Of a stretch of 64,000 bases of DNA, positions 24,741-37,594 are shown piece by piece. Source of the DNA: Bdellovibrionota bacterium FG-2. Lineage in GTDB: Bacteria; Bdellovibrionota; UBA1018. The translations under genes and the position numbers were made by a program. The stretch is from contig JBBCAV010000153.1 of NCBI GenBank assembly GCA_051382305.1, forward strand, positions 6,216-70,215, given 5' to 3'. The stretch's first letter is position 1. Every line of letters starts with the position of its first letter. Below the pieces are notes generated by a model. The model made no database searches. It had not been told where the DNA came from and worked only from the letters and a program-made list of their open reading frames with translations.

Positions 24741-26044
24741 AAAAATACTCCTCCGCCACTAAGGGTCGCCTGCAGAGGATAAACCTCTAGCAACTCGCCT
24801 TCTCTCAAAACATCAATAGACTCTGGCAATACCGCCCAGGCGTTAGCCTCCAAAAGCGGACTCACCATGAACGAAGCTTGTCCCTGCAAAATCTTCACAC
24901 GCGCCTGCCCATCTTGCGCGCTTACACGAAGCTGCGCCTTATAGAAACACTCCAAACCCGGAGGTTTCTTCACAACGCCCTCAAGTTTCGCCCAAATAGC
25001 TGACTCGTTCTTTAACCCCATTAGATTTCTCAAAAAAGGAACGACAAAAAAACGCAAGCCAACTGCTGTCGAAACGGGGTTCCCGGGAACGCCAAAAAAT
25101 GAAACGTTTCCGAGCTTAGCAAAAAGAATTGGTTTTCCGGGTCGAATCTTGACCTTATGAAAAAACACTTCAGCGCCTTTTTTTTCTAGGACTTGCGCGA
25201 CAAAATCAAATTTGCCCATCGATACAGCACCTGTTGTTAAAACGACATCTGGTTTTTCCGCCAGTACACGATCTAAGACGCGCTCAAACTCCCGCGCATC
25301 ATCTTGAATATTGCCAAAAAATGTAGCTTGAGCCCCAAAGGTTTTTAGAGAGGCTTCAAGATACGGGGCGCTGGAGTTTCGGATAGTTCCCGGTTTTAGG
25401 CCAACTTTAAGTGCCCCGGTATCCAGATCCACAAGCTCGCGGCCCGTAGAGAGAAAAATCACTTTGGGTTTTCTCAGCACTTCAAGCTTGGCAATCCCTA
25501 ATGAAGCGAACGCCATGATGCACTCTGGGGTGATGCCCCGCCCCTTTTCGCCTATTTGCTGCTCGCGTTTAAAATCTTCACCTATAAAACGAACATTTTC
25601 CCCAGGTTTTAGGGCTTTTCGTAAAATCACCTCCTGTGGGTTGCCCTTTGCGTCGCGCACCAATTCAACATCTTCGATCTTAACCACACCATCAAATTTC
25701 ATCGAACCGTGTGACACCGGCATCGGGGCCCCAGTCATAATCTCGAATACGCCCCCCTCGGCCGCAGGATAATCAACGCAAATGGGGGCATCGCCTGCCG
25801 ATATGCAACCCAACGCTTTCAACTTCAGAGGCGCTGCCGGAGAGGCAGAAAAAGTAAGCAGTGCGTTGACCGCAAATCCATCCATGGCCGAATTGTCAAA
25901 AGAAGGGACTGCCTCTGGTGAAAAGAGATCGGTAGCCAAAACACGTCCCAAAGACTGATCAAGACTCACACTCTCCACACCCCAGGGCCCGAAACTCTGC
26001 GCGACTTGCGTTAGGATTCCGCGCGCTTTAGTGTAAGATAGCAC
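24737..26044 (-). CDS. moeA: molybdopterin molybdotransferase MoeA
   Basis: SFDNSAMDGFAV and overall MoeA domain order. 435 aa. Confidence 0.85.
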   Translation of the reverse strand: MLSYTKARGILTQVAQSFGPWGVESVSLDQSLGRVLATDLFSPEAVPSFDNSAMDGFAVNALLTFSASPAAPLKLKALGCISAGDAPICVDYPAAEGGVFEIMTGAPMPVSHGSMKFDGVVKIEDVELVRDAKGNPQEVILRKALKPGENVRFIGEDFKREQQIGEKGRGITPECIMAFASLGIAKLEVLRKPKVIFLSTGRELVDLDTGALKVGLKPGTIRNSSAPYLEASLKTFGAQATFFGNIQDDAREFERVLDRVLAEKPDVVLTTGAVSMGKFDFVAQVLEKKGAEVFFHKVKIRPGKPILFAKLGNVSFFGVPGNPVSTAVGLRFFVVPFLRNLMGLKNESAIWAKLEGVVKKPPGLECFYKAQLRVSAQDGQARVKILQGQASFMVSPLLEANAWAVLPESIDVLREGELLEVYPLQATLSGGGVFL

Positions 26045-27213
26045 AACCCCTCCTCAAGAACCTCAAACGCAATTGCCACGCACAACACCCAAAGCATATT
26101 GTTCGTGAGGACTGTGACCCCGGCCGCCACAAGAAGTTTCAGTTTCCCAACAGGCAGCCGCCAAGTTTCAACAGCCAATCCCATATGGAAAACTCCCGTC
26201 GCCATGAGCAGGGAGGAAAGCAAAAACGGCGCAATCCCAAGTCCTGAGGGCCCAAACCAAAAGCCAAGCAAAGCCACGGCCATCACGATGTTTGATAAAG
26301 CGCTTCGTGCACCGCCCGAGCCATGGCAAAAAGGGAGTCCCGCGACAGCGGCCGTTAGGAGATTCCCCAATCCAATCGAAACGAGCAGACTCTTGATGCT
26401 CACACGATGGACTGATTCTCCAAAATAGCGATCCACGGCCTGTTTCGTTCCCAGCACAGAATTCGTGAGCGTCAAAGCTTCGGGGGTAATATCGCGAGGA
26501 GAAATTCCGGTGCCGCCTGCAACGACAATAAGATCTGCTTTGTCCGTTTTCGAAAACCTCTCGATAGCAGCCGCCACCAAAGCCACCTCATCGGCAACGA
26601 CTCGCAAGCAGATGTCGCTTGCGCCTTGGGCTTTCAAGATCTCGACCGCTTTGGGGCCTGAAGTGTCCTGTGCGTCTCCGCGCGAGCAGCGATCGCTGAC
26701 GATGAGCACGCGCGCACGAACACCATTCAACGCAAGCGCCGCTTGAGGCTCCGCAGCAGCAGGGGCATGATTGGGATTAACCCACACACCTGATTTGCCC
26801 CCCTCTTTTACGCTCAGGTGAATGCCCGAGATCGTCAGTACCGGATCAATCCCCTTCGTCAAATCATAGACGCACAAAAGCGCCGCACTCACGCCGGCTA
26901 AGGCTTCCATCTCCACACCCGTTTTTGCAAAAGCGTGGGCTTCGCAACTGACAACGACTTCAGAGCCTTGGACTTCACACTTCACATAGACCGCATCTAA
27001 CGGCAAAGGATGGCAAAGTGGCAGCGTTTCAGAAACTCGCTTAGCACCCATGATGCCTGTCATTTCGGCAAGCGCCAGCACGTCACCTTTAGGCATATCC
27101 CGAGCCGCAATTCGCTGAGCCGTCTGGATCGCCATTTCGATTTTGCCGAAGGCCACCGCGCGACGATGAGTCGAAGTCTTCTCTCCTACGTTGATCATTT
27201 TAAAAGTACTCAT
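26011..27213 (-). CDS. moaC: bifunctional MoaC / MogA(MoaB) molybdenum cofactor biosynthesis protein with unusual hydrophobic C-terminal extension
   Basis: N-terminal MoaC region, then MogA-like LIVSDRCSRGD...LIVVAGGTGISPRDITPEA. The last ~95 aa are strongly hydrophobic. Confidence 0.7.
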   Translation of the reverse strand: MSTFKMINVGEKTSTHRRAVAFGKIEMAIQTAQRIAARDMPKGDVLALAEMTGIMGAKRVSETLPLCHPLPLDAVYVKCEVQGSEVVVSCEAHAFAKTGVEMEALAGVSAALLCVYDLTKGIDPVLTISGIHLSVKEGGKSGVWVNPNHAPAAAEPQAALALNGVRARVLIVSDRCSRGDAQDTSGPKAVEILKAQGASDICLRVVADEVALVAAAIERFSKTDKADLIVVAGGTGISPRDITPEALTLTNSVLGTKQAVDRYFGESVHRVSIKSLLVSIGLGNLLTAAVAGLPFCHGSGGARSALSNIVMAVALLGFWFGPSGLGIAPFLLSSLLMATGVFHMGLAVETWRLPVGKLKLLVAAGVTVLTNNMLWVLCVAIAFEVLEEGLCYLTLKRAES

Positions 27214-27216
27214 GAG

Positions 27217-28239
27217 CTAGCCCCCTATTTGCGAAAGATTTTCGATATTTCCCAGGCGCCCCTGACGTAACCCATGAGCTTCGGGTTTTAACTTCAACAC
27301 TGTGCGCACGCGATCCAGCAACTCGCTTTGTTGATCAGGGCTTTGCAATAAATCGCGCAAGCTCGCCGTTTGATTTCCATCCCCAAAAAGACAAAGCCGC
27401 AAAGCGCCTTTAGCGCTCACCCTGAGTCGATTGCAACCGTCACACAAACCTTCTTGATAAGGAGAAATCAATCCCACACTTCCCGCATAATTCGGATGCC
27501 CATACTCAAGCGCTGGGCCATCCGTAGATGATTTGGATTTTGGACTAAAACCGAGGCCAACAAACTTTGACCTCAAAGCATCTAAAGACAAATGAGCCTG
27601 CTCAAAAACCCCTGCTGCGCTGCGAGTTTGCATGAGTTCTATAAAGCGAATACTAAGCTTTTCAGTTCTCGCCCAATGAAGGTAGGCATCAATATCTTGA
27701 TCGTTTAGCCCCTTCATCAACACGACATTGATCTTAATCGATTCAAACCCAGCGTCCTGAGCCGCTCGAACGCCCGCCAAGACTCCATCTCGACGATCCA
27801 TCCCCGTGATAGAGCGGAACCCCTCGCGAGTAAGACTATCAACACTTACATTGATTTGATCCACGCCCGCTTCTTTGAGCGAACTAGCCAAAGCCTTCAA
27901 TCGGTAACCATTCGTCGTAAGCGCAAGGGTATGGATTCCTGACACCTGTTTAGCAACGCGCGCGATCTCCAGAATATCGGCACGAACCGTAGGCTCACCT
28001 CCTGTCAAGCGGACCTTCGTCACGCCTAAAGTGGTAAAAGCAGAAAGGAGATTTTGAATTTCAATGGGGGTCAAAAAAGGGTTCAAAGAATCGGGGGCAA
28101 TACTCCCGCACTTCTCGGCAACGTAACCCTTGGGCAGGCAATAGACGCAACGAAAGTTACACACATCCGTGATCGAAAGCCTGAGGTAATTAAATGTGCG
28201 CCCAAAGGGATCGGCCAAGCCGATCCCGGAATTATTCAC
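27217..28239 (-). CDS. moaA: GTP 3',8-cyclase MoaA (radical SAM)
   Basis: CNFRCVYCLP radical-SAM cluster motif, C-terminal CxxC, 340 aa. Confidence 0.9.
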   Translation of the reverse strand: MNNSGIGLADPFGRTFNYLRLSITDVCNFRCVYCLPKGYVAEKCGSIAPDSLNPFLTPIEIQNLLSAFTTLGVTKVRLTGGEPTVRADILEIARVAKQVSGIHTLALTTNGYRLKALASSLKEAGVDQINVSVDSLTREGFRSITGMDRRDGVLAGVRAAQDAGFESIKINVVLMKGLNDQDIDAYLHWARTEKLSIRFIELMQTRSAAGVFEQAHLSLDALRSKFVGLGFSPKSKSSTDGPALEYGHPNYAGSVGLISPYQEGLCDGCNRLRVSAKGALRLCLFGDGNQTASLRDLLQSPDQQSELLDRVRTVLKLKPEAHGLRQGRLGNIENLSQIGG

Positions 28240-28495: not shown

Positions 28496-29593
28496 ATGCA
28501 GATTATTTCAAATCGTTTAGCACTCGTTCTATCATTGGGTCTGCTGTTGGGAACAACTTCGCAGGCCCTAGCTGCGGCCCCTGAAGATGTCGCAATCGAT
28601 CCCATTACCGGGGACACCTTTGTAATCGAAAAAAGCCAGAATCCCCATGGTACTCTCTTGATCCTAAACGATCACGACGAAAATTTTAAACAAACCCTAG
28701 ACCTGCTTGATACCCCTTCAGATAACGCCAAGTTTGAAGTGAAGCTCAACGAATCAGGCAACTTAACCTACCTCGTCTCCGTAGACGGTTTGTGGATGAT
28801 GGGAAGCGTAAAGAAGACCGACAAAGGTTGGGCTAAGACTTCTCTTCGCAAAGCGATCAGTGGCCAAGGCGAAGCCCAAGGCTTAGCCGCTCTTCCAGAT
28901 GGCCGCGTCGGGGTCACCGTGAGTTCTAACGAAGCGCCCGATGGCGAAATTCTCTTGGTAAACACCCCTGTTCAAACAGGCTCAAATTACCAGGTCATTG
29001 AAAAAATTCCTGCCGCTGTCATCGAAAACAGTGTCAATCAAGTCGTGGCTGAAATGGCCGCAAAACCAGAATCCGAAAACACAGGATCCGGCCACGGATT
29101 GGGATTTGCGGCTGGCGTTGAAGCCGGAGTCGGAATTGCTTATCGTCGCCATTTTGAAAACAAATGGGGCATGCAACTCGCCGGGATCGCCTTTGGTAGC
29201 AGCTCCTCCGTGAACGCAAACTTTGGCGCCACGATTCTACGCACGCTGGCCAAGACCCAGATCGTTCGGTTTTACGCCCTTGCCGGGGTCAGCGCTTTTT
29301 ATAGCGGCAATAACAACCAAACCTACGCGCCTTGCCCTATAAGCTATGATCCCTACGGCAATCCCATCAAGGATCCTAATTCAACCTGCGGAAACGAACC
29401 TGCGACGAGCACCTGGAACAATAACTGGATGTTAAACTTCGGCATGGGTATAGGGATTGAATTCACGATCGCTAAGACCATCGGCCTAGCCATCGAACTT
29501 CCTGTCACCGTGTCGTTCCAAACGGAGCAAGGTAACCTCAAGTTCAATTATGTTTACCCGATTCCAAGCGCCGCACTCATTTACTATTTCTAA
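28496..29593 (+). CDS. outer-membrane beta-barrel-like secreted protein
   Basis: Signal peptide ...TSQALAAAP. Gly/aromatic-rich C-terminal region ending ...LIYYF. Good RBS aggagg. Confidence 0.5.
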   Translation: MQIISNRLALVLSLGLLLGTTSQALAAAPEDVAIDPITGDTFVIEKSQNPHGTLLILNDHDENFKQTLDLLDTPSDNAKFEVKLNESGNLTYLVSVDGLWMMGSVKKTDKGWAKTSLRKAISGQGEAQGLAALPDGRVGVTVSSNEAPDGEILLVNTPVQTGSNYQVIEKIPAAVIENSVNQVVAEMAAKPESENTGSGHGLGFAAGVEAGVGIAYRRHFENKWGMQLAGIAFGSSSSVNANFGATILRTLAKTQIVRFYALAGVSAFYSGNNNQTYAPCPISYDPYGNPIKDPNSTCGNEPATSTWNNNWMLNFGMGIGIEFTIAKTIGLAIELPVTVSFQTEQGNLKFNYVYPIPSAALIYYF

Positions 29594-30716
29594 GACTGTA
29601 GTAGTGGGGATGTCCGGCGGAGTTGATTCCGCCGTGGCATCCCTTCTGCTTAAACAGCAGGGCTACAACGTCATTGGGCTGTTCATCAAAAGTTGGAATG
29701 AGAAAGATCCTGATGGCAGTTGCACCTCTGCGCGTGACTTCAGCGACCTCGAGCGAATTTGCGCAAAACTTCAAATCCCCTACACTTCCGTCGATCTCGT
29801 CAAAGACTACTGGGATCGTGTTTTTTCAAACTTCTTAGCCGAAATCAAAGCAGGCTTTACACCCAACCCCGACATCTTGTGTAATCGCGAAATCAAATTC
29901 GATGTATTCTTGGAAAAAGCGCGCGAACTCGGCGCAGACTTCTTCGCCACCGGTCATTATTGCAGACTCGAGCACGACACTCACGGCAGCCCCACCCTCC
30001 TCAAAGGTTTGGATACAAACAAGGACCAAAGCTATTTTCTTCACGCCGTAAAAGGCGAAGCGCTAAGAAACGTCCTCTTCCCACTGGGCGCGATGACCAA
30101 ACCCGAAATCCGTAAAATCGCAGAAGCCGCCGGAATCTCAGTGTTTGCCAAAAAAGGGAGCACCGGCATTTGCTTTATTGGCGAGCGCCGGTTTCGCCCT
30201 TTTTTGAAGCAATACCTTTCGGCAAATGAAGGTGAAATTCGCACCTTAGATGAAAAGCGCGTAGGCACTCACATGGGGAGTGCCTACTTCACGCTGGGCC
30301 AACGTAAAGGTCTGGGCTTAGGCGGCGAAGGCGAGCCATGGTTTATCGTTAAAAAAGACACTGTGAGAAACATCCTTTATGTAGCTCGCGGCGACGATCA
30401 TCCCGCGCTTTATGCGAAGACCCTTTTTGCGGAGAATCCGACATGGATTTCTGGTGTGGCACCCGGCGAGAATCCCAAAGCCCCCTATCGCTGCTGGGCC
30501 AAAATCCGGTATCGGCAAGCGGATCAGGCGTGCACGATCACGGCTCACGGATCTGAGGGCGGCTTGCGAGTGGATTTTGATGAACCCCAGCGCGCGATTG
30601 CTCCCGGCCAGTTTGCCGTCTTTTACCAAGGCGATGTGTGCTTAGGTGGTGCAGTTATTCGTGGAGTGGGGGATCCTGAGCCTTTGCCTGAGCCTTTGCC
30701 TGAGCTTTTGCCTTAG
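29550..30716 (+). CDS. mnmA: tRNA-specific 2-thiouridylase MnmA with C-terminal PEPL repeat tail
   Basis: PP-loop VVVGMSGGVDSAV, catalytic region GICFIGER. Start is ambiguous between ATG 29550 and GTG 29604. Confidence 0.85.
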   Translation: MFTRFQAPHSFTISKTVVVGMSGGVDSAVASLLLKQQGYNVIGLFIKSWNEKDPDGSCTSARDFSDLERICAKLQIPYTSVDLVKDYWDRVFSNFLAEIKAGFTPNPDILCNREIKFDVFLEKARELGADFFATGHYCRLEHDTHGSPTLLKGLDTNKDQSYFLHAVKGEALRNVLFPLGAMTKPEIRKIAEAAGISVFAKKGSTGICFIGERRFRPFLKQYLSANEGEIRTLDEKRVGTHMGSAYFTLGQRKGLGLGGEGEPWFIVKKDTVRNILYVARGDDHPALYAKTLFAENPTWISGVAPGENPKAPYRCWAKIRYRQADQACTITAHGSEGGLRVDFDEPQRAIAPGQFAVFYQGDVCLGGAVIRGVGDPEPLPEPLPELLP

Positions 30717-31218
30717 ATTCCGCCCGGACACTCGCCGCAATTGTCCTTCTTGATTGCTTTTGTTGATCCGCCAAAAGAAAGCTCTGATAAAAAGTATTTC
30801 CCTCATTAATTCTTTCAACTTTTCTAGACTGCTCTATGGCCACGCTCCGATCTTTTTCTAAACCAACAAACAGTTTTTGCGCGGCAATTTGGGGCCTAAA
30901 ATCCTCAGTGAAGGGACGCTCCATCTCGGCGACTAGAATCTGTTTTGCGGCGTTCTCAGACGCTGCATTCTTTGCCCTGACCGCAATGCGATGGGCTAAG
31001 CGCACGCATTCCAATCGATAGCTAGCGGGCATCGATGTCTCGCGTTTCAATACGGCACTCAGCGCACCGAGATAACTGATCGGATTCTCGCTAATTGCTT
31101 TGAATTCATCGCTGCGTAAAGCCAATGACATCATCGTCCGCCGCTGGCGAATCTTCAGCGAAGCCCCCACCCTCCGTCCACGTTTCTTGCCCACAGAGGG
31201 ATCGCTATCGGGAGACAA
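30655..31218 (-). CDS. hypothetical protein with C-terminal KAQA repeats
   Basis: Protein-like 187-aa ORF. Its C-terminus is encoded antisense to the mnmA tail repeat. Confidence 0.35.
   Translation of the reverse strand: MSPDSDPSVGKKRGRRVGASLKIRQRRTMMSLALRSDEFKAISENPISYLGALSAVLKRETSMPASYRLECVRLAHRIAVRAKNAASENAAKQILVAEMERPFTEDFRPQIAAQKLFVGLEKDRSVAIEQSRKVERINEGNTFYQSFLLADQQKQSRRTIAASVRAESKAKAQAKAQAKAQDPPLHE
30676..30713. repeat. 12-bp tandem repeat (cctgagcctttg x3) coding PEPL on + and KAQA on -
   Basis: Read directly from the sequence. Confidence 0.7.
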
Positions 31219-31285: not shown

Positions 31286-31828
31286 TCACCTGGACTTCAG
31301 TGCTTCTTGCATTTGGTCATAGCGTAACAATTTTTCCCGATCAGCCGACGCATCCCTTAATTTTCCGATCAAGCGAACCAGTGTTTTTCCTTCCGAAGAT
31401 GATAGTTCGGCTGATTTTAACTTGAGCATTTCAAGACAGTCTCGAAAATCAGATTCCGATAACCGAGACAATTTCAACTGAAGGAAAAGCATCACGCTCG
31501 GACGATAAATCTTTGCCTGTCCCTGCTGAATTAGAACGAGATGATTCTTGAAATCCGGAATTTTTTGCAGAAAAAAGGCAGCGGCCCCATTCACGGTTTC
31601 AATGGGTAACCCTAACTCCTCGCAAATCGTCATGATCTTTAAACTCTGATCATTCGTCATGGCCTCGACTGGAACAAAATCGATATCAGTCGTCGTGCGA
31701 TAGGAGTGCCCAAGATACGGCAAGACCGTTCCTCCTAAGAGCACCCACTCCCCGCTTAGCCGCCCAGAAGCCAGCTTCAAGAATCGCTTTAGCAGTTTCT
31801 CATCAAGACTCTTCACCACAGGGGTCAC
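31286..31828 (-). CDS. AbiEii-like minimal nucleotidyltransferase (putative toxin)
   Basis: VLLGGTVLPYLGHSYRTTTDIDFV matches the pol-beta NTase hG[GS]...DhDh motif and the AbiEii N-terminal consensus. Confidence 0.55.
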   Translation of the reverse strand: MTPVVKSLDEKLLKRFLKLASGRLSGEWVLLGGTVLPYLGHSYRTTTDIDFVPVEAMTNDQSLKIMTICEELGLPIETVNGAAAFFLQKIPDFKNHLVLIQQGQAKIYRPSVMLFLQLKLSRLSESDFRDCLEMLKLKSAELSSSEGKTLVRLIGKLRDASADREKLLRYDQMQEALKSR

Positions 31829-32349
31829 AAGTACTCCGAAATCTTCGCCAAGGCCAAGCGCCGCAATTTAACCACGCGCCCCGATCGTACCCGTGCCATA
31901 AACTCGGCCTGCTGGTTTCGTCCGAAATGGGCTCGGAAAAAGGAAGGATAATGCGTCGAAAGCGCCAAAATCAACGCCGCAACTGCTTCGGTTTTTCGCG
32001 CCTCACATCCACCAGCGCTCGCTTCAATAATCGCGGTGCGGAGCTCTCGAACCAAGTCTTCTTTATTACCTTGATTGCCCCTATGCCTTGGCCCCAGAGC
32101 GCTCGACTGCGCTCGCATCAGAGGCAAACCCAATTCGATGAGTCGGTCCCAATCACAAGTTTTTAGCTGAAGCTCTACCGAAAAGCCTAAGACTCGGCCC
32201 AACTTCTCGAGGGTATCTATCGAAGGATTTGAAGTCCCAGCCTCCAACTGTTGAAGCGTCGGGAGCGCAATCTGGGCCTGAGCCGCAAGCTCAACCTGGG
32301 TAAGGCCAAGGCATAAGCGTTGAGATCTAACATTTTCCAGAACAGACAT
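31825..32349 (-). CDS. XRE-family HTH protein with ~110-aa C-terminal domain (putative antitoxin/regulator)
   Basis: HTH LGLTQVELAAQAQIALPTLQQLEAGTSNPSIDTLEKL. Its stop overlaps the NTase start by 4 bp. Confidence 0.6.
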   Translation of the reverse strand: MSVLENVRSQRLCLGLTQVELAAQAQIALPTLQQLEAGTSNPSIDTLEKLGRVLGFSVELQLKTCDWDRLIELGLPLMRAQSSALGPRHRGNQGNKEDLVRELRTAIIEASAGGCEARKTEAVAALILALSTHYPSFFRAHFGRNQQAEFMARVRSGRVVKLRRLALAKISEYL

Positions 32350-32391
32350 ACATCTATTAAACCATGTATGCTAAACTATGTCAACTTCGCC

Positions 32392-32985
32392 CTATGCCGC
32401 CTTCACTTGGTTACGACCCGAAGCCTTTGCCACATACAGAGCCTTATCCGCCTCGGTTAGAAGCTTCTCGGACTCGTACCCCAAGCGCTCCGTAGAGGCG
32501 ACACCCACACTGATAGAGCACCCGCCAAAGCGCTCTACTTGCCTTCGGACCCGTTCAGCAAGGGTTAAGAGATCCTGCTGCGAGCCTTCGGCGGCAATCA
32601 CGAACTCCTCACCCCCAAAGCGACCTACCACGCAACCTGCAGACTCAAAATTCTTTAGAAGCCCTGCCACTCGTTTAAGCACCACATCTCCTTCGACATG
32701 CCCTAGCGTGTCGTTGATCTTTTTAAAATGATCAATATCCACGATGATCATTCCGCAGTTTTCAGTTTCCTTCTCACACGTATCCAAAATCGTTTTCCAT
32801 TTAGCGAAGAAGGCCTTTCTTCTGAGGAGTCCCGTTAGCTCATCGACGTTACACACGCCTTCTAAGTTTTGAATAACCGAAAGCACCCGAGAGTAGGATG
32901 CCTCTAACTCGGTGACTTCACCATGGAGGTTAGAGAGGAGTTGGCGAATCTCGAAGAGGCTTGTTTCTAGGTGCTTTCGGTCCAT
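32392..32985 (-). CDS. diguanylate cyclase (GGDEF domain, GGEEF active site), no sensor domain
   Basis: RFGGEEF, DIDHFKKINDTLGH. Short coiled-coil N-terminus. Confidence 0.8.
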   Translation of the reverse strand: MDRKHLETSLFEIRQLLSNLHGEVTELEASYSRVLSVIQNLEGVCNVDELTGLLRRKAFFAKWKTILDTCEKETENCGMIIVDIDHFKKINDTLGHVEGDVVLKRVAGLLKNFESAGCVVGRFGGEEFVIAAEGSQQDLLTLAERVRRQVERFGGCSISVGVASTERLGYESEKLLTEADKALYVAKASGRNQVKAA

Positions 32986-33154: not shown

Positions 33155-33763
33155 ATGTTGCACCGCATGAAAACAATAATGCTGATACTCGCCCTGAGCT
33201 TAACAAGCCTAATGCAATTACACAGTGCCCTTGCAAACGATCGCGAAGATCTCACCCCCGGTTTGCTCGATGAGATTCAAGCCGTAAAAGATGGCATGAA
33301 AAAAACGCGAGTCTACTTGAGTCGCTCACTACACATCAATCGTACCGACTATATCGGAGAATCCGACAGCAGTGTCGTCGGCGGCGGACTTGAGAAGACC
33401 ATTAAAGACAAACGTCGCAATGAAGACATTCCCAGAAACGCAAGAGGCCAAATCATCGAAATCAAAGACGAGCACGTCTGGATCGCTTTCGACAAAGATT
33501 GCGAGAGCAGAGAATGCGCTTTTCATTTTCAATTTCGCGCGCGCGAAAACGATACAAGCCGATTCCCCAAGGAAAAATTCATCTTCAACAACGCCCCGAA
33601 GAATCCGGATTTTAGAACCGTGACTTATCGAGCAACCAGTTTTTGGTTCGGGATTTTGAGAACCTCCGAAATCATTCATCTCGAAGTCAAATACGACGAA
33701 ATTCACGAGTTTATCACCGAGTACAAAACTCACCCTGGCGTGGATGCCCCGGACGAGCGCTAA
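33155..33763 (+). CDS. secreted hypothetical protein
   Basis: Signal peptide MKTIMLILALSLTSLMQLHSALA. Confidence 0.45.
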   Translation: MLHRMKTIMLILALSLTSLMQLHSALANDREDLTPGLLDEIQAVKDGMKKTRVYLSRSLHINRTDYIGESDSSVVGGGLEKTIKDKRRNEDIPRNARGQIIEIKDEHVWIAFDKDCESRECAFHFQFRARENDTSRFPKEKFIFNNAPKNPDFRTVTYRATSFWFGILRTSEIIHLEVKYDEIHEFITEYKTHPGVDAPDER

Positions 33764-35286
33764 GCGATCTTCTTAACCGGCACCACCACGGCGCTCGGGG
33801 ACCCACCTACTTTTCTAAAGTCCGAAGCCGTGATGCGAAACTTGCGCAACATACGCAGAAAATTACTGCGATCAATTTTCGATTCTTGAGAGGCCTTACT
33901 CACATTCCCATGGTGACGGGTGAGCATCCCCGTCAGAAACTCTTTTTCGAAATTCTCACTCCAGCGTTTCTTAAGATCTCGATATACGCCCAGCTGAGAC
34001 GTGGATTTTACCGGGAGATTTAGCGTCTGAGCAACTACTCGCAGCTCAGACGTCTTAGGAAGAGCAAGCAATCTCGCGCCAACAGTCTCCCCACCCTGGA
34101 ATACAAGCGCCACCCGCTCAATCACGTTTTGTAATTCACGAACGTTACCCGGCCACGCGTAGCCCTCTAGCGCCGCGCGCGCTTCTTCGCTAAACCCAGA
34201 GAAGACTTTTCCGCGCGCGGAAAACGCGTCCCTTGAAAACTGCTCGGCAAACGGGACGATATCAGAGCGCCTTTCACGAAGCGCCGGGAGCTGTAAAACG
34301 ACGCGACTCAAACGATGAAACAGATCCTCGCGAAACCCGCCTTCCGCCACTCGCTTGTTGAGATCCACGTGAGTTGCGGCAATCACCCGAACATCTGTCT
34401 TTTCGTCTTGCGTGGCGCCCACGCGCCTAAACACTTTTTCTTGAAGTACGCGCAGGAGTTTAGCTTGAAGTTTTGGATCCATTTCACCAATTTCATCTAA
34501 GAAAAGTGTGCCGCCTTTTGCGATTTCAAAAAGGCCGCGCTTTAGCGCCACGGCGCCCGTGAAGGCGCCCTTCTCATGACCAAAGAGTTCAGACTCCAAA
34601 AGCTGCTCATTAAAATTTGCACAGTTCACGGCTACCCAAGGTCCCTGCGCACGCGCCGAATCAGAATGGGTTCGACGCGCAATCCCCTCCTTACCAGTTC
34701 CACTCTCTCCCAAGATCAGGACGGTAGGTTCTTCTACGCCCTGCCTTAAGGCCTCGCGCCGCAAAACACTGAGCCACTCATTGACCTTGGACATCGACGG
34801 ATCTTTTGAAGCAATCCAGCTCTTCACCAATCGGGCGCCCCCGCCCTGCGCCTCAGCTCTAACGGCACGCGCTTCCAGCCTTGCGAGCAGGTCTTCATTT
34901 TCGCGTTCTAAAAAGACTTCGGCCTGCGCTCTTTTAACAGCGATGCTCAGCTCATCTAAATCAAAGGGCTTCTCCAAGTAATCCACGGCACCTAACTTGA
35001 GTGCCGAGATCGCCACATCTTTTTCGCCATGCCCAGTGATCATAATGACCCGAAGCCGCGGAAATATCTCTTTGGCCCAAGCCATCAAAGCCAGCCCATC
35101 TTTGCCGGGCATTTTTAGATCCGTGATCAATACCCCAAAACCAGGGGTCAAGGCTTTTTCGGCCTCTTCGGCCCCATGTGCGGTTACGACCTCAAACCCC
35201 TCACGCTCCAAACGCGACTTCAGGAGTTTTCTAATCGTTTCTTCATCATCCACAACCAGCACTTTTTGCGGCATCTGATTTTTCAC
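33760..35286 (-). CDS. sigma-54-dependent response regulator (NtrC family: REC, AAA+, Fis HTH)
   Basis: REC VLVVDDEETIRK, Walker A GESGTGKE, GAFTGA motif, C-terminal HTH. Confidence 0.85.
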   Translation of the reverse strand: MKNQMPQKVLVVDDEETIRKLLKSRLEREGFEVVTAHGAEEAEKALTPGFGVLITDLKMPGKDGLALMAWAKEIFPRLRVIMITGHGEKDVAISALKLGAVDYLEKPFDLDELSIAVKRAQAEVFLERENEDLLARLEARAVRAEAQGGGARLVKSWIASKDPSMSKVNEWLSVLRREALRQGVEEPTVLILGESGTGKEGIARRTHSDSARAQGPWVAVNCANFNEQLLESELFGHEKGAFTGAVALKRGLFEIAKGGTLFLDEIGEMDPKLQAKLLRVLQEKVFRRVGATQDEKTDVRVIAATHVDLNKRVAEGGFREDLFHRLSRVVLQLPALRERRSDIVPFAEQFSRDAFSARGKVFSGFSEEARAALEGYAWPGNVRELQNVIERVALVFQGGETVGARLLALPKTSELRVVAQTLNLPVKSTSQLGVYRDLKKRWSENFEKEFLTGMLTRHHGNVSKASQESKIDRSNFLRMLRKFRITASDFRKVGGSPSAVVVPVKKIA

Positions 35287-36503
35287 CCTAATTCCCTAAA
35301 ATCTCTTGGTATGCGAACTAAAAACACCGTCCCCTTGCCCATTTCACTTTCAACGCGGATCGAACCATGAAGCTTTGAAATCATCCCATAACTTAGACTC
35401 AAACCTAGCCCCATGCCCTTACCAACTTCTTTTGTCGTAAAAAAGGGATTGAAAGCCTTGGATTTGGTGCGCTCATTCATGCCGGCGCCGTCATCACTAA
35501 ACTGGACCTCAACAAACTCACCGTTAATTCGCGTCGTAATTGAAACTTTCCCAGAGCCCCGCCCTGTCGCCTCAATCGCATCCCGCGCATTAGTGGCAAG
35601 ATTAATAAACACCTGCTCCAACTGAAGCGCGTTAGCATAGACCGGAGGAAGCTCCTGGCCGTAGCAACGGGTGACTTGAATTCCCCGCGTGACGAACTGT
35701 CGGGCTAGCATTTTAAGGGCTTCTTCAATACGATCATGGACATTCGTGAATTCGTGGCTCTCCGTTGATTTTCGTGTAAATGCGCGCAGATAATCAATGA
35801 TTTTAGCCATCTTGTCAGCGTTGCTGATCACTTCTTGCAAACCGTCTTGGGTTTGCTTGAAGCCCTCTTGATTCGCAATCAAGGGCAGCGCAATCGCCTG
35901 CAGCTCCTGAGCATAACCTCTGATCCCCTGTAACGGTTGATTAAGCTCGTGTGCGATGCCTGCCGCAAGTTCTCCCAGTGCCGCCATCTTGCCCGATTGC
36001 ACCAGCGTTTCTTGCATCGAGTGAAGCTCCGCATTTTGCTTTTCGAGCTGAAAGTAGGCGTTTCTTAGTTCCGCGTGTTTTGTGATGAGCTCCCGCTCCA
36101 TGCGCTTTTTCTCGCTCACATCTCGAAAAATCGCGAGCGACAGCTTGGAGTGACTCCCCTGCACACGCCGGACACTCACATCGACCAACGTTACATACCC
36201 ATCTTTTCTCACCACGGCGATATCTTCATACGTGCCCGCTATCTTAAACGTTTCTCGCGCCAGCGGCCTTGCTCGTTCAGGGATTCGGTGTTTTGTGGGA
36301 TCGGGAATCAAGAGCTGAATGGATTCCCCAATAAGTTCTTCTTTGAGATACCCCGTCAGCTCCTCGCCGGCCTTATTGAGCGCATCGACTTTGCCCGTGG
36401 GAAGCACTGTTAAAATTGCGTCCGAAGCCTGGTCAAATAGGATTTGATAATTATTTTCGGACTCCGCTTCTGCTATGCGAAGATGTTTTCGATTAGTGGG
36501 CAT
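35283..36503 (-). CDS. PAS-domain sensor histidine kinase
   Basis: HisKA H-box HELNQPLQGIRGY, HATPase G-boxes (GMGLGLSLSYG). Confidence 0.8.
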   Translation of the reverse strand: MPTNRKHLRIAEAESENNYQILFDQASDAILTVLPTGKVDALNKAGEELTGYLKEELIGESIQLLIPDPTKHRIPERARPLARETFKIAGTYEDIAVVRKDGYVTLVDVSVRRVQGSHSKLSLAIFRDVSEKKRMERELITKHAELRNAYFQLEKQNAELHSMQETLVQSGKMAALGELAAGIAHELNQPLQGIRGYAQELQAIALPLIANQEGFKQTQDGLQEVISNADKMAKIIDYLRAFTRKSTESHEFTNVHDRIEEALKMLARQFVTRGIQVTRCYGQELPPVYANALQLEQVFINLATNARDAIEATGRGSGKVSITTRINGEFVEVQFSDDGAGMNERTKSKAFNPFFTTKEVGKGMGLGLSLSYGMISKLHGSIRVESEMGKGTVFLVRIPRDFRELG

Positions 36504-37380
36504 GCAAAAACGCGCTGGCCCTTTCTATTTCTTTTCCCAATTCCTCTTCGAGGACGGGAATTTCCTCCGGCTTAATTTTCAAGGGGGCCAACATATCGGG
36601 CGTGATGTCGCCAGCAGAGAAGTCCCCGGATTTTCCGATTTTATTCTTCACACAAAGCGCGTTGGCTAGCCTCACCATGTGGATCACGGGCTTGGCCGAA
36701 GCTAAAACGCTATCCATTTTTGAAACATCAAAATGATGATAGCGAATCGCGAGACGAATAACCTGAGGCAACCCCCATTTTGAGGCAATCACCTCGCCCA
36801 AGAAAGAGTGTCCTGGAAGTTCAAATTCTTTTTCGACCTCCACGAAGGAGCATTCACGTTTGAGGGTTTCCTTGATGATTCCCTGTAGGCGTTCAGGATC
36901 AATTTTATGGAGCACAAGTTTCCCAATGTCGTGAAGCAGTCCACAGGTAAACGCCTCTTCAGGCTTGGGATGTTTAATGCGTTTCGCGAGCATCTCGGCG
37001 CCCACGGCGGTTGCAAGTGCGTGCCGCCAAAAATCCATCATGGGAAAATCTTCTAACTCGATATCTGGAAAAACCGAGAAAACGGAGAGCCCCAACACGA
37101 GTTGCGCAAGCGTATTGAAACCCAAGAAGGCCAACGCCCGCTGAACATCGGTCACCCCCCCTGGAATGGCATAATACGAGGAATTCACAAGCCGCAGGAT
37201 CTTGGCCGTCAGGACCTGGTCCTTTTTAAGCACCATGGCAATGTCCGAGCTTGAAGAACTGGGATCGTTAATGAGCTCGTTGACGCACATCGCAACAACC
37301 GGAAGAGTTGGAATATCTTGAAGTTTTTCAAGCAGAGCCGAGTATTCGGATTGAGTTTTTTTCGTATTGGGTGTGGCCAT
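36493..37380 (-). CDS. HDOD domain signalling protein
   Basis: Conserved HD-related residues (LLHDIGKLVL). First gene of the HDOD, histidine-kinase, response-regulator block. Confidence 0.8.
   Translation of the reverse strand: MATPNTKKTQSEYSALLEKLQDIPTLPVVAMCVNELINDPSSSSSDIAMVLKKDQVLTAKILRLVNSSYYAIPGGVTDVQRALAFLGFNTLAQLVLGLSVFSVFPDIELEDFPMMDFWRHALATAVGAEMLAKRIKHPKPEEAFTCGLLHDIGKLVLHKIDPERLQGIIKETLKRECSFVEVEKEFELPGHSFLGEVIASKWGLPQVIRLAIRYHHFDVSKMDSVLASAKPVIHMVRLANALCVKNKIGKSGDFSAGDITPDMLAPLKIKPEEIPVLEEELGKEIERASAFLHAH

Positions 37381-37519: not shown

Positions 37520-37594
<75 letters not shown>

Follow-up and report, generated by a model that had tools for sequence, protein, structure and literature searches.

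We favor, with moderate confidence, the interpretation that a two-gene cassette on the minus strand of the window (the whole 64,000-nucleotide stretch of DNA that was analyzed) is an autoregulated nucleotidyltransferase (NTase) toxin-antitoxin-like module. Judged from its sequence, it is most likely a previously unreported small variant of the AbiEii/MenT class of tRNA-modifying toxins, with toxicity being a predicted property. The cassette consists of the following features.

Window 32384..31286, minus strand: whole cassette of ~1.1 kb, comprising promoter-like element, gene 1 and gene 2.
32350..32384, minus strand: promoter/operator-like element, read directly from sequence and from conservation.
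32384..32379, minus strand: perfect -35 box, TTGACA.
32361..32356, minus strand: imperfect -10 box, TTTAAT, after a 17-nt spacer from the -35 box.
32349..31825, minus strand: gene 1, predicted repressor/antitoxin, an XRE-HTH protein of 174 aa with an ATG start (from the ORF list).
32173..32328, minus strand: XRE/Cro-C1 helix-turn-helix (HTH), gene 1 residues 8-59 (matched above gathering by Pfam HTH_3, E=7e-11).
32116..32157, minus strand: conserved linker motif CDWDRLIELGLPLM, gene 1 residues 65-78 (from the translation and relatives' alignments).
31828..32064, minus strand: all-alpha C-terminal domain, gene 1 residues 96-174, five predicted helices (AF2 model).
31828..31825, minus strand: GTGA start/stop overlap of gene 1 and gene 2, 4 bp shared.
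31828..31286, minus strand: gene 2, predicted toxin, a pol-beta-fold NTase of the DUF6036-like clan, 180 aa with a GTG start.
31679..31738, minus strand: NTase motifs I/II, L-G32-G33-x10-R44-T-T46-T-D48-I-D50 (from the translation; contains the peptide LGGTVLPYLGHSYRTTTDID quoted in the original prediction).
31436..31477, minus strand: NTase C-terminal block, L118-K119-L-S-R122-L-S-E-S-D127-F-R-D130-C131 (from the translation).

Gene 1 and gene 2 are genuine genes and not chance ORFs. The same pair is annotated, in identical form, in Bdellovibrionota bacterium FG-2, where the gene 1 protein is 100% identical, and the NTase has 321 relatives. No point was found in favor of chance ORFs or an annotation artefact, and the fact that hundreds of homologues keep length, motifs and pairing, together with confident structure predictions, makes such an explanation exceedingly improbable. 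The original prediction described two genes overlapping by 4 bp, with mnmA (29550..30716, plus strand) and a GGDEF gene (32985..32392, minus strand) among their neighbors, and both ORFs, on the minus strand, as well as both neighbors are indeed located there. The GTGA overlap of gene 1 with gene 2 implies that their translation is coupled. Within the window there is no second copy of the cassette, and the cassette region has neither an Rfam family nor a compositional (GC) anomaly. We rejected a downstream 187-aa ORF (30655..31218) as a possible third component, as it lacks a Pfam match and is missing from the syntenic relative L012.

Homologues of gene 1 and gene 2 are adjacent in 43/43 evaluable loci, which holds from the partner side as well. 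Specifically, among 38 distinct relative loci the junction is a 4-bp overlap in 23 and a 1-bp overlap in four (27/38 overlapping in total), with the others separated by a gap of no more than 29 nt, and this pairing with tight junctions spans GC contents of 33-70%. Flanking genes vary between loci and are common to the closest relatives only; for example, locus L001 (71% identity) has other neighbors than the window cassette. Similarity between relatives reaches from the -35 box to the NTase stop codon. The promoter-like element and the two genes thus far described are conserved and appear as a single unit in differing genomic contexts, which agrees with the original prediction that the pair acts as a cassette. 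That prediction had named two outcomes that would count against it, a lack of any pol-beta NTase score and a universal housekeeping synteny; given the profile support for the NTase described below and this cassette behavior, neither was found. Its additional proposal of mobile defense was not borne out. There are no NTase relatives in plasmid, phage, IMG/VR viral and PHROG collections, no recognizable defense island surrounds the loci, the GC composition is unremarkable, and the family occurs for the most part in Bdellovibrionota, with a single copy in every matched genome.

These observations also bear on the possibility that the same toxin-antitoxin-like pair is dedicated to anti-phage abortive infection, being triggered by infection as a phage defense. 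Three points speak for such a role: related NTases form the basis of the Abi systems AbiE and AbiG, the best defense-library match of the NTase is the PADLOC AbiEii profile (4e-5), and in some loci the pair adjoins either an HNH endonuclease or a methyltransferase together with a UvrD-type helicase. However, the PADLOC match covers only the shared NTase motif, and the neighbors are mostly housekeeping genes (mnmA, GGDEF, def, ProRS, IleRS, TrmO and QueC) with neither a defense island nor phage, plasmid or viral relatives. We regard dedicated anti-phage function as rather unlikely, and a phage-defense role for the cassette is unsupported. Without mobile-element relatives, in single copy and largely in one phylum, the family is also less promiscuous than typical toxin-antitoxin families. 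Note that one metagenomic locus (L009) has an in-frame stop in the partner gene with the NTase intact which, if real, argues against strong toxicity.

Gene 2 appears, from its active-site residues, to code for a catalytically intact minimal pol-beta NTase, and profile and structure comparisons both agree with the original assignment of the second protein to this fold. Residues G32, G33, R44, T46, D48 and D50 are invariant in 126/126 relatives, as are L118, K119, R122, D127 and D130, while C131 is kept in 125/126. By motif, D48 and D50 are the predicted metal-binding Asp pair. The order R-x-T-x-D-x-D, then an invariant Lys and DxxD, is by pattern the signature of AbiEii/MenT (DUF1814) toxins. 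DUF1814 motifs I/II are described as hG[G/S]-x(~15)-DhD, where motif II includes an Arg specific to the family (PMC3985639), and this pattern is present as L31-G32-G33-x14-D48-I-D50, with R44 four residues before D48. Also present, as T46, is the Ser/Thr two residues before the first catalytic Asp. In sequence comparison R44 and this Thr fit the AbiEii/MenT signature, with T46 at the phospho-acceptor position; literature positions are R63/T65/D67/D69, K173 and D192 in AbiEii, R37/T39/D41/D43, K137 and D152 in MenT1 and R76/S78/D80, K189 and D211 in MenT3, with T65, T39 and S78, respectively, being the phospho-acceptors. Alignment partners of motifs I/II are AbiGII (GG..RSTVDID) and plasmid AbiEii/AbiGii. 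As for the C-terminal block, K119 may be the counterpart of the Lys in DUF1814 motif III, and D127/D130 that of the +DxxD pentad of motif IV, by pattern only. Specifically, in L118-K119-L-S-R122 the Arg is at +3 versus +7 in motif III, which is KLxAaxxR-like with hydrophobic residues on either side of the Lys, a region left unaligned by hhalign, and D127-F-R-D130 is preceded by Ser/Thr and not Lys/Arg, is unaligned by profile, and has D127 8 residues past K119 versus 15-22 in MenT.

The N-terminus does match AbiEii/AbiGii profiles, as had been proposed from the AbiEii/DUF1814 motif, whereas membership of that family did not hold up. Pfam AbiEii (PF08843) is matched with E=0.0028 and 18.1 bits versus a gathering score of 22.5, and over residues 24-52 only. 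A search with the NTase profile against PDB sequences gave the AbiGII chain with E=0.0085. With hhalign, annotated AbiEii/AbiGii toxins from plasmids aligned over 33 N-terminal columns at E=8e-5 and a probability of 60%. With a score below gathering and the first ~30-50 residues alone aligning, AbiEii/DUF1814 membership was rejected. The best curated family is Pfam DUF6036 (PF19502), for which the window NTase scores 19.9 versus 23.6 bits over residues 20-134. Among 36 relatives, 30 match DUF6036 at E<=0.01 (best 2.2e-10) and 23 match AbiEii, and many relatives carry a precomputed PF19502 label. Going by these profiles, the window NTase is best described as a peripheral DUF6036 subfamily. Sequence searches of the PDB with whole-NTase and motif-only profiles reached AbiGII and no MenT chain; antibody light-chain J segments that surfaced in the motif-only search were discarded as chance matches to GGT.L.VLG. 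Literature searches found no mention of DUF6036 or PF19502, and nothing relevant for Bdellovibrio combined with toxin-antitoxin and nucleotidyltransferase.

The confident structure prediction for gene 2 has a pol-beta fold that resembles solved MenT/AbiEii-type toxins and that, at the fold level, is equally close to LnuA and ANT(2'') as to MenT toxins. An enzyme of this type could instead be a small-molecule NTase under a repressor that modifies an antibiotic or metabolite in the manner of LnuA or ANT(2''), with the XRE protein's tail sensing a ligand and de-repressing the operon, and with no toxin involved. This explanation is unlikely. There is no Pfam or NCBIfam resistance-NTase (Lnu / ANT(2'')) family match even at E<=10, profile matches are limited to AbiEii/AbiGii and DUF6036, and the invariant R-x-T-x-D-x-D, Lys and DxxD residues are those of DUF1814 toxins. 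In addition, the strict 1:1 adjacency with start/stop overlap over GC contents of 33-70% suggests a stoichiometric protein pair, not a regulator and its enzyme. The median pI of the NTase is 9.05, a basic value that would fit RNA binding.

Gene 1 has the layout of repressor-antitoxins, an HTH followed by a helical tail. The original prediction of an N-terminal XRE HTH with an unknown C-terminal domain of ~110 aa agrees with our searches, in which the tail past the HTH has no Pfam match and no PDB sequence match. Likewise, the C-terminal domain has no PHROG match, a fold search with the gene 1 protein gave HTH domains only and no match for the tail, and NCBIfam gave weak matches to HipB-type and PezA antitoxins that cover only the HTH. 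The proposal that an XRE HTH stands in place of the winged-helix AbiEi was also upheld by the HTH_3 match and by the lack of an AbiEi match in Pfam, PADLOC and NCBIfam. By these sequence criteria the C-terminal domain is undescribed before and family-specific. Its representatives number 500 (50% clustering, E<=1e-3), and of the 122 in which 50 aa or more precede the domain, 120 carry the HTH. The AF2 model of gene 1 has a pLDDT of 82, with values of 82-93 in residue blocks 101-160. Conserved features of the domain are ER..A, HYP..F and G..IKL.R.AL..EYL, and the invariant residues of gene 1 are a Gly, R118, two Ala, P135, K161, L162 and R164. With a pI of 9.8, the tail is basic rather than acidic. 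In the linker, G74, P76 and L77 are invariant among close relatives, and this region (CDWDRLIELGLPLM; segment CDWDRLIELGLPL) is a candidate NTase-contact segment.

Conservation of the tail domain is as strong as that of the NTase, which would also suit a non-toxic circuit in which the NTase modifies its XRE partner by nucleotidylylation or phosphorylation, or in which the NTase is protective like MNT and the XRE-tail protein is the effector. MNT antitoxins are known to AMPylate HEPN partners, and PDB entries 7aer and 6m6u are among the weak Foldseek matches. These MNT-type matches are, however, much weaker than those of MenT/AbiEii type, and the HTH-first order with an autoregulatory layout is the antitoxin pattern. 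The partner also has no Rx4-6H motif of HEPN proteins, and on this basis a HEPN-MNT system, in which the NTase is a minimal MNT of ~100-140 aa, was rejected. We consider a circuit of this kind improbable.

Upstream of gene 1, six nucleotides separate the -10 box from the ATG and there is no Shine-Dalgarno, from which a leaderless mRNA is predicted. The promoter-like element contains an imperfect direct repeat (GTTTAGCATAC / GTTTAATAGAT), and a 38-nt promoter stretch is kept in both L012 and L001 despite the unrelated upstream flank of L001. A sigma-70 consensus scan did not call the window promoter because position 2 of its -10 box is T, so that this promoter was read by eye and from conservation. 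Relatives have a similar arrangement, in that a TATAAT-like hexamer (at least 5/6) ends 3-12 nt upstream of the ATG in 30/37 and an SD-like tetramer is present in only 1/37. A significant palindrome, exceeding shuffles, is present upstream of gene 1 in 19/37 relatives. These palindromes are AT-rich and abut the probably leaderless ATG, and one such palindromic relative is L036, with its CATATTATAATATG repeats. The operator region of the window has no significant palindrome of its own and contains only the conserved promoter block and the imperfect direct repeats. Operator-like sequences vary from locus to locus.

In the toxin-antitoxin-like model that we favor, the NTase would extend the 3' end of an RNA by nucleotide addition, with the tRNA CCA end being the most plausible target, as it is for MenT1, MenT3, MenT4 and AbiEii, and this modification would block aminoacylation and stop growth. 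The linker and C-terminal domain of gene 1 would neutralize the NTase, which could occur by active-site occlusion and possibly also by induced auto-phosphorylation of the invariant T46, a type VII mechanism. The gene 1 HTH would act as the repressor of the operon by binding operators that overlap both the -10 box and the 5' start of the probably leaderless transcript, and tight translational coupling would keep both proteins in step. The GTP-dependent tRNA chemistry suggested in the original prediction is out of date, as a newer report describes AbiEii as using pyrimidines specifically on tRNA and as being neutralized by antitoxin-induced auto-phosphorylation (bioRxiv 10.64898/2026.01.19.700257). 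A type VII mechanism has been shown for MenA1-MenT1, MenA3-MenT3 and AbiEi-AbiEii.

A bolder version of the toxin-antitoxin reading, which we offer only tentatively, is that the cassette may be a minimal, lineage-restricted type VII system. Here the all-alpha tail would induce T46 auto-phosphorylation of a 180-aa tRNA NTase, and the system would be kept on the chromosome in predatory Bdellovibrionota, where it would possibly gate growth arrest between attack phase and growth phase and not serve in phage defense. If true, this would be the smallest known MenT/AbiEii-like toxin, and a third, unrelated antitoxin fold would have converged on the same control mechanism. Points that count against a toxin-antitoxin reading are the subthreshold NTase scores with only ~33 N-terminal columns aligning to AbiEii profiles, the low promiscuity of the family, the basic tail, the lack of a significant palindrome in the operator region of the window and, if real, the L009 stop codon.

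AbiEii/MenT toxins block translation by tRNA 3'-end extension and are switched off by antitoxin-induced auto-phosphorylation. If the favored model is true, this class would reach a much smaller enzyme outside DUF1814, Pfam DUF6036 would gain its first functional hypothesis, and the tail, with its roughly 500 sequence clusters, would define an antitoxin domain that is new and so far missing from Pfam. With R-x-T-x-D-x-D, Lys and DxxD invariant throughout the 126 relatives, the model makes sharp predictions that cost little to check. The cassette would also be a compact natural example of a leaderless autoregulatory design with the operator at the start codon, and since it is restricted to predatory bacteria, one may ask whether it has a role in their life cycle. 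If the enzyme instead modifies a small molecule, it would represent a resistance-type NTase family not known before, paired with a sensor-repressor of its own.

Several known systems share parts of this organization. The PezA, HipB and spr1629-type repressor-antitoxins likewise come first in their operons and have an N-terminal XRE HTH with a helical extension, which in those proteins is toxin-binding, but their C-terminal domain is unrelated by sequence and their cognate toxins are a kinase or UNAG kinase, not an NTase. LnuA and ANT(2'')-Ia have no sequence-family match with the cassette NTase and resemble it at the fold level only; R-x-T-x-D-x-D with DxxD points to the toxin clade and not to these enzymes. 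To our knowledge, neither is found in an obligate pair with an HTH protein. DUF6036 (PF19502) is a nucleotidyltransferase family without a described function or partner, and the window NTase falls below its gathering score. For MenA1-MenT1 (Rv0078B-Rv0078A) and MenAT3/MenAT4 of Mycobacterium tuberculosis, the PDB search gave no MenT sequence match, the Lys-to-Asp spacing is 15-22 residues versus 8-11 in the cassette NTase, and MenA1, at 68 aa, lacks a DNA-binding domain, unlike gene 1.

Regarding AbiE and AbiG, these are plasmid-borne phage-defense systems, whereas the cassette is chromosomal and absent from plasmid and phage collections. Their AbiEii/AbiGii enzymes are ~280-300 aa versus 180 aa for the cassette NTase, with ~33 profile columns aligning, and AbiEi is a winged helix with an NTase-like C-terminal domain (AbiEi/COG5340) whereas the cassette partner combines an XRE HTH and an all-alpha tail. 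Nevertheless, AbiEi-AbiEii (of Streptococcus agalactiae and lactococcal AbiE) and AbiGi-AbiGii are likewise bicistronic and overlapping, with a first gene that is DNA-binding and autoregulating, as is predicted for gene 1 of the cassette, and a second that codes for a pol-beta NTase. Common to these enzymes and the cassette NTase is G-G-x14-16-R-x-T-x-D-x-D, including the Arg and the Thr that in AbiEii is the phospho-acceptor T65.

Two overlapping genes, encoding proteins of 174 and 180 aa, are present at the positions of the original prediction, on the minus strand, sharing the four bases GTGA and flanked by the expected neighbours, mnmA and a GGDEF gene:

29550..30716, plus strand, mnmA, cassette neighbour
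31828..31286, minus strand, NTase gene (gene 2), 180 aa, GTG start
32349..31825, minus strand, partner gene (gene 1), 174 aa, ATG start
32985..32392, minus strand, GGDEF diguanylate cyclase, cassette neighbour

In 'Bdellovibrionota bacterium FG-2' an identical pair is annotated, its products named helix-turn-helix domain protein and hypothetical protein, WDW86_08700. The N-terminal XRE HTH claimed for the first protein is borne out by Pfam HTH_3 at residues 8-59 (E=7e-11, above threshold), and the peptide quoted for the second is found in the 180-aa protein. On the same strand, 67 nt beyond the NTase gene, comes a 187-aa ORF (30655..31218, minus) that matches no Pfam family and whose C-terminal AKAQ repeat runs antisense to the mnmA tail PEPLPEPLPE. 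Since this ORF is missing from the syntenic relative L012, it is probably outside the cassette and may not be a gene. Elsewhere in the window, minus-strand ORFs at 26011-28239 resemble molybdenum-cofactor biosynthesis genes, judged from their translations, and a run of signalling genes (33760-37380, minus), a context unrelated to the cassette, lies just upstream of the GGDEF gene region:

26011..27213, minus strand, MoaC/MoaB-type fusion-like ORF with a hydrophobic C-terminal extension (translation read by eye)
27217..28239, minus strand, MoaA-like ORF with a radical-SAM CxxxCxxC motif (translation read by eye)
33760..35286, minus strand, sigma-54-dependent response regulator (Pfam scan)
35283..36503, minus strand, PAS histidine kinase-like ORF (translation read by eye), 4-bp overlap with the response regulator
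36493..37380, minus strand, further ORF of the signalling run
37520..37594, tRNA-Val, beyond the run

In HMM searches of all fetched loci, every one of the 43 that could be evaluated has the partner gene as the immediate upstream neighbour of the NTase gene, a count that leaves out one locus cut by a contig end. The HTH-tail gene is directly upstream of the NTase in all seven metagenomic neighbourhoods of homologues, whose flanks are mutually unrelated. Reciprocally, downstream of two distant representatives of the tail (the partner's C-terminal domain) lies a DUF6036 gene or a truncated gene, again overlapping by 4 bp. Among 38 distinct junctions the overlap is 4 bp in 23 and 1 bp in 4, with gaps of at most 29 nt in the remainder, and the GC content of the surveyed loci ranges from 0.33 to 0.70. 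Flanking genes are common to the closest relatives only: the window and L012 both have GGDEF, mnmA and an outer-membrane protein, and in L001 (71% NTase identity) the cassette has an aldehyde dehydrogenase on one side and an HNH endonuclease on the other. Nucleotide similarity among these three loci runs from the -35 hexamer to the NTase stop codon, indicating that the conserved unit is the promoter plus the two genes (32384..31286). By its constant pairing, differing flanks and bounded similarity the pair is thus a cassette, as had been proposed, and not a piece of housekeeping synteny that never co-varies.

In the 71%-identical relative a DUF222/HNH endonuclease gene (L001:2121-3269, L002:2097-3245) follows the cassette at a distance of 365 nt; no other neighbour gives a hint of mobile or defence DNA. 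A dedicated Abi defence role, a sub-case of a toxin-antitoxin-like model, receives little support from genomic context and is unlikely. We also observed an AAA_14 + DUF4143 ATPase gene within ~2.2 kb downstream of the NTase, on either strand, in 7 of ~38 distinct loci (L015, L016, L025, L031, L037, L044 and L045; for example L025:1467-2636, L031:3601-4755 and L016:1720-2958). It is absent beside the pair in the window, and its recurrence may be a loose association or merely reflect a many-paralogue family.

Past the GGDEF stop codon, the 42-bp minus-strand spacer consists of TTGACA, 17 nt, TTTAAT and 6 nt before the ATG, with no Shine-Dalgarno sequence; a consensus promoter scanner makes no call there because the -10 is imperfect. 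Among 37 distinct relatives, a TATAAT-like hexamer (5/6 or better) ends 3-12 nt before the ATG in 30, an SD-like tetramer precedes the partner ATG in only 1, and A+T is 73% in the last 40 nt versus 55% further upstream. The mRNA of the partner gene appears to be leaderless. A perfect inverted repeat exceeding dinucleotide shuffles (p<=0.05) is present in 19 of the 37 (mean arm 7.4 versus 4.7 in shuffles), often as two copies abutting the ATG. The -10 box and AT-rich palindromes adjoin the partner start (window 32350-32400; L003-L045). The palindrome varies by locus (CATATTATAATATG, CCTATTATAATAGG and GCATAATATATTATGC among the 50-nt upstream stretches of L003-L045); the double repeats include, for example, CATATTATAATATG-N-TATTATAATATG (L036, L011, L017, L021) and CCTATTATAATAGG (L030, L034). 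From these upstream sequences we infer that the operon is leaderless or nearly so, and autorepressed. In the window's own sub-clade the upstream element is conserved but holds imperfect direct repeats in place of a palindrome, and the operator claim is therefore weaker at this locus.

The AlphaFold2 model of the partner (pLDDT 82) has four parts:

residues 1-58, HTH
residues 65-78, conserved linker CDWDRLIELGLPL
residues 80-91, disordered stretch
residues 96-170, five-helix C-terminal domain

The tail has no match in Pfam, PDB sequences or PHROG. Its profile retrieved 500 proteins at E<=1e-3 (249 at E<=1e-10) from 1.84 billion representatives; nearly all are 160-185 aa long and carry the domain at residues ~63-172, and an XRE HTH is found in 120 of the 122 having at least 50 residues upstream of it. 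The tail is therefore an undescribed domain in one fixed architecture.

The gene 2 product is solidly an NTase. Its AlphaFold2 model, built with the family alignment, is very confident (pLDDT 95.8, pTM 0.90), and its structural matches are LnuA (9.2), the fungal NTase-like protein 5uvd (8.9), TglT/MenT3 (8.5), MenT1 (8.1), ANT(2'') (8.0), JHP933 (7.7), TM1012 (7.6) and MenT4 (7.1); Foldseek gives the same picture, at weak E-values. The model thus places the protein about equally distant from MenT/AbiEii toxins and small antibiotic NTases. That the top match, LnuA, is an antibiotic NTase counts against a toxin-antitoxin reading, and a sensor-repressor paired with a small-molecule NTase is an alternative of low probability. 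By sequence, the window protein scores below cut-off against both DUF6036 (19.9 bits, residues 20-134; cut-off 23.6) and AbiEii (18.1 bits; cut-off 22.5), PADLOC AbiEii models match its N-terminus only (E down to 4e-5), and an NCBIfam search gave no match. Among 36 homologues, DUF6036 matches 30 (best 2e-10), AbiEii 23 and DUF2204 5, and the family is DUF6036-like. The single sequence relative of the family profile among solved structures is AbiGII (9hlo_B, E=0.0085), aligned over GG...R-S-T-V-D-I-D. The AbiEii-like label originally proposed therefore holds for the NTase fold and an N-terminal AbiEii-type match, and falls short in an AbiEii score that is subthreshold and confined to residues 24-52.

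Across 126 family members G26, G32, G33, R44, T46, D48, D50, N80, R109, P110, L118, K119, R122, D127 and D130 are invariant, and W28, E77 and C131 are kept in 125. The window protein reads R44-T-T46-T-D48-I-D50 and, later, L-K119-L-S-R122-L-S-E-S-D127-F-R-D130-C. DUF1814 toxins have four defining motifs, including hG[G/S]-x~15-DhD with a family-specific Arg, a Lys-centred motif III and a +DxxD motif IV (PMC3985639). Catalytic sets are R63/T65/D67/D69/K173/D192 in AbiEii (PMC3985639; bioRxiv 10.64898/2026.01.19.700257) and, in the literature, R37/T39/D41/D43/K137/D152 in MenT1 and R76/S78/D80/K189/D211 in MenT3. The N-terminal half of this signature, as read from the residues, is exactly present, and aligns by profile with annotated plasmid AbiEii/AbiGii toxins (R64-S-T66-x-D68-x-D70). 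The likeness of the C-terminal half is one of pattern only, compressed and with no hhalign alignment, and the NTase is therefore not classed as a DUF1814 member, though by analogy we regard it as working like one; its residues predict an intact catalytic site with a toxin-type signature.

The loci demonstrate cassette behaviour, tight coupling and a repressor-type first gene. The best-supported reading, which we hold at slightly better than even confidence, is that the cassette is a toxin-antitoxin-like module. By analogy with MenT1/3/4 and AbiEii, the NTase would add nucleotides to tRNA 3' ends, the partner's linker and tail would neutralise it, and the operon would be autorepressed. The residue auto-phosphorylated on antitoxin binding is the Thr/Ser that lies two positions ahead of the first Asp (PMC11375011; bioRxiv 10.64898/2026.01.19.700257), and on the same analogy T46 may be auto-phosphorylated; a partner-modifying or MNT-like arrangement is improbable.

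Several observations count against the toxin-antitoxin-like module. The tail is basic (pI 9.8) rather than acidic, GC content is ordinary, and relatives were not found in plasmid, phage, IMG/VR or PHROG searches. Scanning one genome per species gave 34 loci in as many assemblies, and this single-copy distribution is largely of one phylum: the records label 22 as Bdellovibrionota (Bdellovibrionia, Bacteriovoracia, Oligoflexia), 5 as 'Deltaproteobacteria', 4 as 'Myxococcales', and 1 each as an Anaeromyxobacter MAG, Pseudomonadota and 'uncultured bacterium'. MAGs that carry the label Myxococcales, Anaeromyxobacter or Pseudomonadota include copies of 63-70% GC (L032, L033, L035, L037, L038, L039); the family may extend into other former Deltaproteobacteria, or these labels may be unreliable. 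A further point against this reading is L009 (3467-3977, a long-read metagenome contig), where an in-frame TAA follows partner codon 105, with the remaining tail still in frame beyond it and the NTase gene intact. Either this stop is an error of sequencing or the partner is broken beside an intact NTase, and the latter case would argue against strong NTase toxicity.

The general principle of an NTase toxin with an HTH antitoxin is already established. Our literature search found no paper mentioning DUF6036 or PF19502, and none tying Bdellovibrio to NTase toxin-antitoxin systems; the cassette yields predictions that are sharp and cheap, and supplies two uncharacterised families with a first hypothesis. 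Among known systems it comes closest to AbiEi-AbiEii/AbiG and MenAT, above all to MenA1-MenT1, whose toxin has 189 aa; it shares with them the operon logic, fold, R-x-T-x-D-x-D signature and later Lys and Asp residues. In contrast to these systems, the NTase here has 180 aa and a compressed C-terminal lobe and falls below curated DUF1814 thresholds, the predicted antitoxin is a new XRE-fused domain, and the cassette lies on the chromosome and is found mostly in Bdellovibrionota.
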